Positions 1 through 1,652 of a stretch of DNA of 8,444 nt are shown piece after piece (the first letter of the stretch is position 1; each line of letters opens with the position of its first letter). The stretch is from the IMG/VR virus record IMGVR_UViG_2700989521_000015; one strand, written 5' to 3'. The notes under the pieces were generated by a model. It was not told the DNA's origin. It did no database searches and was given only the letters and a program-made list of their open reading frames with translations. The DNA comes from a virus. Taxonomy: Duplodnaviria; Heunggongvirae; Uroviricota; Caudoviricetes. A program made the position numbers and the translations under genes.

Positions 1-266
1 CGGCCTGAGTTTTTTAAGTGACGTAAAATCGTGTTGAGGCTAACGCCCATAATGCGTGCAGTTGCCCGGCATCCAACGCCATTCATGGCCATATCAATAA
101 TTTTCTGGTGCGTACCGGGTTGAGAAGCGGTGTAAGTGAACTGCAGTTGCCATGTTTTACGGCAGTGAGAGCAGAGATAGCGCTGATGTCCGGCAGTGCT
201 TTTGCCGTTACGCACCACCCCGTCAGTAGCTGAACAGGAGGGACAGCTGATAGAAACAGAAGCCAC
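1..266 (-). CDS. insA: IS1 InsA (transposition regulator), partial: GTG start at 264-266, last ~3 codons and stop are off the window
   Basis: Minus-strand translation from the GTG at 266 gives [89 protein letters not shown], which matches InsA as I recall it (zinc-finger CPSC...CSHC plus HTH). Absent from the ORF track because no stop lies in the window. Confidence 0.85.
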
Positions 267-321
267 TGGAGCACCTCAAAAACACCATCATACACTAAAT
301 CAGTAAGTTGGCAGCATCACC
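1..321 (-). mobile_element. IS1 insertion sequence, left end only (about 321 of ~768 bp; rest lies off the window start). Terminal inverted repeat at 299-321.
   Basis: Minus strand of 299-321 reads GGTGATGCTGCCAACTTACTGAT, which I recognise as the IS1 terminal inverted repeat, followed inward by the characteristic insA leader and coding sequence. Recognition is from memory of IS1, not a search. Confidence 0.9.
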
Positions 322-1652
322 TGCAATTCCATCATATCACCCTTTTCTGCCGCTTCAATCGCCCGTTGCGCCAACCAGTTGCGCAATACCAGAGCTGGGT
401 TAACGCTTTGCATCAGTTGCTGACGCTCACTATCGCTAACCTCGTCTTGTTGCAAACGCCCCCGATAACGGGCAAACCAGTCATCAAATGCCGCACGATC
501 AATAAACTCATCACGTAGCGGTGACGCCGCGCTGTGCTGCTCGGTCAGACTCAGCATGCGGAATGTGCGGGTATAATCGCTGCGCTCTCGCGCCATCAGA
601 CTGAATAATTCATTCAGTAGCGCGTTATCCTCTTTTTGCTCCGTCATGAAGCCCAGTTTCTGCCGCATCCGTTGTCCATAATGCGTCAACAAAACCTGCT
701 GATAGCTGTCCAGGGCCTCATTCAGGGCATCTACGGCAACAAATGGTGACAATGTCTGCGCCAGACGCTGTAAATTCCACAACGCGACAGCAGGTTGATT
801 ATCAAAGCTATAACGCCCTTGATGATCCGAGTGATTACAAATAAAACCGGGTTCGTAATCATCAAGAAAACCAAACGGCCCGTAATCAAGCGTCAGTCCC
901 AGCAGCGACATGTTGTCGGTATTCATCACCCCATGTGCAAAGCCGACCGTCTGCCATTGGGCAATTAACGACGCGGTACGTGCGACAACATCGCTAAACC
1001 AGAGACGGTATTTGTCCTCATCATCTTCAAGATGTGACCAGTAATGACGAATAGCAAAGTCAGCTAACTGACGAACCTTTTCCGACTCGCGGCGGTAGTA
1101 AAAATGTTCGAAATGACCAAAGCGCAGATGACTTGGTGCCACACGCATCAGCATCGCGCCTAGCTCCGCCGTTTCCCGATACACTGGCGAATCGCTGGTG
1201 ACGATACTTAACGCGCGGGTCGTCGGAATGCCCAGATAATGCATCGCCTCACTGGCGAGACTTTCTCGTATCGTCGAACGTAAAACCGCCCGTCCATCAC
1301 CCATTCGCGAATAAGGCGTCAGGCCAGCACCTTTCAGATGCCAGTCCATTGTAGTGCCATCAGTAAGCAGTTGTTCGCCGAGTAAAATGCCGCGCCCATC
1401 ACCCAGTTGGCCCGCCCAGACGCCGAACTGATGACCACTGTAAACCTGCGCCAGTGGTGACATACCAGGCAGTAGGGCTTCGCCGCCCCAGACACCTGCG
1501 CCATTTTTAAACAGCGACGATGGAATACTCAGCGTGTTAGCCAGTTCGGTATTATGCCAAATCAGCCGGGCATTATTTAAAGGCGTAGGGGAAAGTGCTG
1601 TATAGGTTTCTGGCAATTCATCGCGCCAGCGGGTAACAAAAGACAGGGTCAT
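300..1652 (-). CDS. selO: SelO/YdiU protein adenylyltransferase (AMPylase/UMPylase), 3'-truncated by IS1: about 443 host-encoded residues fused to a short IS1-derived tail (QVMLPTY) and an IS1-borne stop
   Basis: 450-aa ORF whose sequence I recognise as E. coli YdiU/SelO up to ...[10 protein letters not shown]; the intact protein is ~478 aa from memory. The ORF then runs into the IS1 inverted repeat at 321/322. AGGAGG Shine-Dalgarno precedes the ATG at 1652. Confidence 0.9.

Follow-up and report, generated by a model that had tools for sequence, protein, structure and literature searches.

SelO (YdiU) has roles in the control of redox state and stress, and in Salmonella it also helps to regulate flagella and chaperones; the position of its Cys476 is occupied by Sec in higher eukaryotes. 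Yang et al. (bioRxiv 10.1101/692707) describe E. coli YdiU as having a disulfide between Cys476 and Cys272; in their account, Ser477 and Ser478 are the sites of a self-AMPylation that abolishes UMPylation, and a variant without the last three residues, YdiU475, is active in UMPylation and is not switched off by self-AMPylation. The same work finds residues 444–467 ordered in the crystal structures, with only 468–478 disordered, and places this ordered segment within a C-terminal regulatory domain that “clamps” or stabilizes the catalytic domain.

Of the IS elements that have expanded in Shigella, the insertion sequence IS1 is the most abundant, and it is one of the main reasons for gene loss there (PMC7373316); Shigella genomes are also described as strongly rearranged through IS elements (PMC8072062). 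The A6C frameshift motif of IS1 has been described, its promoter PIS1 is reported to overlap partially with the left inverted repeat (IRL), and its target duplications are reported as 8 or 9 bp in length (PMC12428005).

In the locus described here the two meet. Compared with E. coli SelO/YdiU (478 aa; PDB 6K20, 6III, and 9JYM), residues 1–443 are near-identical, whereas residues 444–478 are missing, the seven residues QVMLPTY stand in their place, and two substitutions, A97T and P164L, are present. We consider it very probable that this arrangement arose through the simple insertion of an IS1SD-type element into the 3′ part of selO, with loss of the tail, and that the result is most likely an IS-generated pseudogene.

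The junction between selO and IS1

The window, by which we mean the whole 8,444-nucleotide stretch of DNA that was analyzed, is the complete draft contig LAIG01000052.1 (assembly GCA_001017215.1) in reverse orientation. It is flanked by repeats, with IS1 at its left end and IS600 at its right end, a pattern that short-read assembly of a Shigella genome would be expected to give. In public databases the protein identical to its 450-aa selO product is labeled “YdiU family protein [Shigella dysenteriae]”. The features to which we refer are the following.

1–321, minus strand: left 321 nt of an IS1SD-type IS1, identified by sequence identity; the contig end falls inside the element
3–266, minus strand: insA, 88 of 91 codons, with a GTG start at 266–264 (IS1 nt 56, ~55 nt inside the IRL); cut by the contig end
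9–15, minus strand: A6C (AAAAAAC) programmed −1 frameshift motif of IS1, read directly
287–314, minus strand: promoter-like site CTGCCA-16-TATGAT from a consensus scan, overlapping the IRL at the position of PIS1
299–321, minus strand: left inverted repeat of IS1, GGTGATGCTGCCAACTTACTGAT, read directly and exact (321 to 299)
300–1652, minus strand: selO′-IS1 fusion ORF, 450 codons plus TGA at 302–300, from alignment to intact selO and the Pfam SelO match
303–323, minus strand: seven replacement codons, the hybrid CA/G (Q) followed by VMLPTY from IS1 nt 2–19
322–330, no strand: probable copy of the 9-bp target-site duplication, TGCAATTCC (GGAATTGCA in the selO sense), abutting the IRL and matching the start of contig L016
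322–1652, minus strand: host part of selO, codons 1–443 plus 2 nt of codon 444, collinear with E. coli BE2-5 selO
8385–8444: left end of IS600 (IS3 family), interrupting a prophage DUF4761 gene

The identity of the element is clear. Window positions 1–321 are 100% identical to copies annotated as “IS1-like element IS1SD family transposase” in E. coli genomes and agree with IS1A and IS1B at 312–313 of 321 positions, and locus L015 holds a complete 768-bp IS1 copy whose left part is identical. The incomplete insA matches the Pfam families Zn_ribbon_InsA (PF03811, 1.4e-21) and HTH_Tnp_IS1 (PF12759, 1.1e-29), and the repeat GGTGATGCTGCCAACTTACTGAT also bounds annotated IS1 copies at two comparator loci, L002 and L003. 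The element thus shares its IRL, the zinc ribbon and HTH of insA, and the A6C motif with the IS1SD isoform of S. dysenteriae and E. coli, from which it shows no difference; the window holds just the first 321 of its 768 nt because the assembly broke in the repeat. An exact match over 321 nt is no chance resemblance, and the sequence beyond the inverted repeat is IS1, as the initial annotation had supposed.

As the reference for the host side of the junction we used the intact 478-aa selO allele of E. coli BE2-5 (locus L001). The fusion ORF is collinear with BE2-5 SelO up to residue 443, and the insertion point lies between selO nt 1331 and 1332, with IS1 in the orientation of selO. The frame across the junction runs CA/G-GTG-ATG-CTG-CCA-ACT-TAC-TGA: codon 444 is a hybrid of CA from the host and G from IS1, encoding Q in place of H, and the TGA at IS1 nt 20–22 ends a product of 450 aa, as opposed to 478 aa in the intact protein. 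Residues 444–478, 35 in all, are exchanged for seven. The initial annotation had set the inverted repeat against selO at codon ~443, carried the host frame into IS1 for the seven codons QVMLPTY up to an IS1-borne stop, and counted ~35 SelO residues as replaced; the alignment bears out each of these statements and puts the junction after 443 codons plus 2 nt. Nor is the intact C-terminus encoded in frame elsewhere, as it is found just as a detached remnant on other contigs. The presence of IS1, the junction, and the fusion ORF are confirmed as real.

The IRL stops all three incoming frames within 27 nt (window 295–321), with TGA at nt 3–5, TGA at nt 20–22, and TAG at nt 25–27, so that any host gene entering this end gains at most eight IS-encoded codons. 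The closest parallel comes from E. coli NCCP 13717 (NZ_CP115984.1). Its selO insertion involves the same element type, in the same orientation and at the same end of the gene, has a 9-bp duplication (GACGACTGA), and likewise takes its stop from the IRL. It is nevertheless independent of the Shigella insertion: it lies 62 bp nearer the selO stop, removes ~14 residues (465 aa remaining), and uses the TGA at IS1 nt 3–5, in another frame than the Shigella selO′.

The truncated SelO protein

According to the history that we propose, the 3′ part of selO would have received an IS1SD-type IS1 by transposition in the ancestor of an S. dysenteriae/S. boydii lineage. Translation would then proceed from the 443 host codons over the hybrid codon into six codons of IS1 and end at the TGA at IS1 nt 20–22, and the resulting 450-aa product would keep the whole catalytic core while lacking the last ordered regulatory segment and the tail. 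The most likely outcome would be a SelO that is either non-functional or unregulated, and one more IS pseudogene in a decaying Shigella genome.

The catalytic part of the protein is well preserved. The Pfam SelO family (PF02696) matches residues 2–446 on profile positions 4–461 of 466 (2.1e-152), with nearly the same score for the truncated protein as for the intact one (508.6 vs 512.7 bits). All of R87, K107, D119, R170, R177, D246, N247, and D256, which serve in nucleotide and metal binding and catalysis in the active-site list of Yang et al. (bioRxiv 10.1101/692707), are retained, as is Cys272. What is lost comprises residues 444–467 and the tail 468-WGKRLEVSCSS-478, together with Cys476 and Ser477/478. 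With this conserved C-terminal tail missing, the protein is a truncated derivative and not an intact member of the SelO/YdiU family.

Judged from its sequence, the 450-aa SelO is most likely unstable or inactive, since an ordered segment is cut; the alternative is a protein that would be active but unregulated. As YdiU remains active without its last three residues, loss of function of the 450-aa form is likely rather than certain.

The host part of selO differs from its closest intact allele, that of BE2-5, by only two nucleotides, at window positions 1162 (P164L) and 1364 (A97T), and both differences are nonsynonymous. Among 5,426 complete E. coli genomes there is no instance of the two substitutions together, and either one is found in at most one genome. 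They would be compatible with relaxed constraint but are far too few to show it. We also considered whether either of them is damaging: position 164 is not conserved, being Tyr in P. syringae SelO, and the evidence points neither way.

A rival to the pseudogene reading is a truncated SelO that works as a deregulated enzyme, free of both the disulfide and self-AMPylation, and that has been kept by selection. The intact set of named catalytic residues and the almost unchanged Pfam score would suit such an enzyme, as would the behavior of YdiU475, and the truncated ORF is otherwise intact in two sublineages, while the independent insertion in NCCP 13717 also removes the tail only. We nonetheless regard this explanation as unlikely, because the cut takes ordered residues of the regulatory domain (444–467) in addition to the tail, because the two nucleotide changes relative to the closest intact allele are both nonsynonymous, and because the neighboring btuC is decaying too. 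The wider proposal, that a tail-less, constitutively active SelO is kept by selection and that NCCP 13717 provides a second example of it, is decidedly improbable. If it were true, there would be a Shigella lineage with a constitutively active UMPylating/AMPylating enzyme whose off-switch has been removed. The truncated protein could serve as a natural tail-less variant for studies of SelO autoregulation. We prefer the pseudogene reading, and loss or deregulation of SelO fits relaxed selection in a non-motile, host-restricted pathogen.

The other end of IS1 and the probable target-site duplication

The cut made by the IS1 transposase is staggered. In a simple insertion, GGAATTGCA should flank IS1 on both sides, the right end of the element would join GGAATTGCA-CCGCCTGCATGAGG, and the other junction, written in the plus sense of the window, is predicted to read 5′-CGCCTCATGCAGGCGG TGCAATTCC GGTAATGACTCCAACTT-3′.

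Exact look-ups of predicted remnant peptides led to contigs that carry ppsR-aroH-hemP together with a 3′ remnant of selO and whose first base lies at offset 0, 3, or 7 of the 9-mer. One of them (L016; GCA_044619435.1, with hemP-aroH and the selO 3′ remnant) begins GGAATTGCACCGCC and includes the full 9-mer, its start, GGAATTGCA, being the reverse complement of window 322–330. Another, labeled S. boydii (L010), begins ATTGCACC, 3 nt further in, and a third, from S. dysenteriae (L009), begins CACC, 7 nt further in. Both comparator insertions carry 9-bp duplications, GACGACTGA in NCCP 13717 and TAAGAATCA in strain 20220828076 (L002 and L003). That the remnant contigs start exactly at the site, one of them with the full 9-mer, favors a simple insertion with a 9-bp duplication. 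We regard the duplication as probable, its two copies coming from different assemblies, and the selO remnant presumably adjoins the other end of IS1. The initial annotation had taken TGCAATTCC at 322–330 to be the expected target duplication; the sequence stands as it was given, and its status as a duplication, which is supported indirectly by the start of L016, is probable.

No contig spans this IS1 copy, as all break inside it or at it; even in the 73-kb scaffold L004 the sequence gives way to N at IS1 nt 174 and stays so until the locus ends. Ten predicted remnant ORFs spanning the right inverted repeat and the duplication (e.g., MESLPELHRL...) yielded no record, the edge-partial LHRL... 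being the only form found. A scan of species-representative genomes and JGI metagenomes, collections that lack this lineage, returned neither the predicted other junction nor the observed selO–IS1 junction.

The break of every contig at IS1 leaves room for a less simple history, in which an IS1-associated rearrangement (deletion, inversion, or IS1–IS1 recombination) would mean that the remnant and hemP-aroH-ppsR do not lie directly beyond IS1. The remnant contigs are just 1.3–2.7 kb long and break again in the ppsR-ppsA spacer, which indicates a repeat-rich neighborhood. However, these contigs begin precisely at the site, one with the complete 9-mer, and a deletion would have removed the 9-mer. 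We therefore find a rearrangement of this kind quite unlikely as an alternative to simple insertion, although an inversion by IS1–IS1 recombination may have followed a simple insertion.

Flanking genes, spread of the junction, and genome decay

The initial annotation also proposed that the outward-facing end of IS1 could alter the expression of flanking genes. This did not hold up, as there is no plausible target: selO converges with hemP across a 3-nt gap in intact genomes, and the plus-strand promoter-like match is antisense to selO. That match, the only one directed outward, spans the boundary between IRL and host at 308–335, scores 9/12, and combines a −35 element in the IRL (TTGGCA) with a −10 element in the host (CATCAT). 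Work by Prentki and colleagues from 1986 reportedly found that IS1 insertions create hybrid promoters, which would be in favor of such an effect. It is nevertheless very improbable that the main consequence of the insertion is a regulatory one, exerted by an outward promoter on flanking genes. One weak match of 9/12 carries little weight given that region 1–700 holds three promoter-like matches against 0.7 ± 1.0 in shuffles; a plus-strand transcript from 308–335 would be antisense to selO, ydiV, nlpC, and btuDE, all of which lie on the minus strand; and selO has no co-oriented downstream gene, its convergence with hemP leaving none that could be subject to polarity. Because IS1 and selO are co-oriented, selO transcription would read into the IRL and insA, and Machida and colleagues are said to have reported in 1983 that read-through from flanking DNA represses IS1 activity. 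Read-through from selO would tend to immobilize this IS1 copy.

The selO–IS1 junction (k-mer GGAATTGCAGGTGATGCTGCC) is common to at least 17 contigs, five of which are shown to reach into IS1. These include, besides the window, four further contigs from other assemblies (L004, L005, L007, and L008) in which the junction is identical and which break 28–173 nt inside IS1; one of the four comes from a Logan assembly of SRR28208711. A partial SelO of 442 aa is encoded on a further 12 S. dysenteriae contigs; of these, two were read, and both end ...ATGATGGAATT (...GGAATT), within the 9-mer. The junction is present in two sublineages, whose identity to the window is 100% and 99.86%, and an insertion shared in this way has been inherited within a clade and is no artefact. 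An assembly chimera, in which IS1 reads were misjoined to selO in one draft contig that happens to end in a multicopy repeat, where assembler errors are common, has a negligible probability and is ruled out by the identical junction in separate assemblies, by the two 442-aa contigs that stop at the junction, and by the complementary contigs that start there. The two sublineages are separated by a 33-bp indel at window ~5865–5942, in a repeat-containing prophage gene of hypothetical function (145 vs 156 aa; L007, L011, and L012).

Outside this clade, selO is almost universally intact in E. coli and truncations are rare. None of the 5,426 complete E. coli genomes has the selO–IS1 junction, and only two have IS1 anywhere near selO, both at other sites. 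Around hemP and the 3′ end of selO, a span of 345 bp (L001 2164–2509) contains three IS1 insertions of independent origin, namely the Shigella insertion in selO, that of NCCP 13717 inside selO, and that of strain 20220828076 upstream of hemP. All three have the same orientation, and the two that are complete carry 9-bp duplications. There may be a local target preference of IS1 near hemP and selO. We also considered a hotspot for C-terminal truncation of selO and set it aside, since the sampling covered C-terminal remnants only and so permits no claim of enrichment. Among rare selO alleles of E. coli are some with a deletion of 13 bp or of 1 bp close to codon 427 (nt 1277–1289; L017, L018, and L021). 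Their products of 435 and 439 aa end in an out-of-frame tail (a full-length selO would give 434 and 438 aa) and are accompanied by a separate 39-aa C-terminal ORF; the 13-bp deletion occurs in one of the 5,426 complete genomes (TW10598) and the 1-bp deletion in none.

The truncation of selO is an ordinary instance of IS-driven gene decay, a process already well known. As in the IS pseudogenization described for Shigella (PMC7373316), selO is cut by IS1, btuC is frameshifted, and a prophage gene is cut by IS600. The main text and the searched supplements of that study, Hawkey et al. 2020 (PMC7373316), contain no mention of selO or ydiU; it dealt with S. dysenteriae type 1, S. sonnei, and S. flexneri, whereas the contigs considered here are labeled S. 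dysenteriae and S. boydii. A literature search for Shigella, ydiU, and IS1 together returned no paper, and no paper citing the WGS accessions was found. With this insertion, a further gene joins the functions that IS elements have inactivated in a Shigella lineage, and in practical terms the 450-aa “YdiU family protein” of these genomes should be annotated as an IS1-truncated selO, with the contig break at this point being an IS1 copy.

The remainder of the window also shows decay. The gene for the permease of the vitamin B12 ABC transporter, btuC, is present as a pseudogene at 4579–5547 on the minus strand: compared with E. coli SE11, it has lost 1 bp after window position 4658 and 11 bp after 5334, which leaves ORFs of 245 aa and 77 aa. 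From ~5750 to 8384 the window contains the integrase end of a P2-like prophage, comprising an integrase, an HTH protein, and the DUF4761 gene. This prophage end adjoins btuC where ihfA-pheT would be expected, an arrangement also found in 81 of the 5,426 E. coli genomes, among them SE11, in which a replication endonuclease gene follows.
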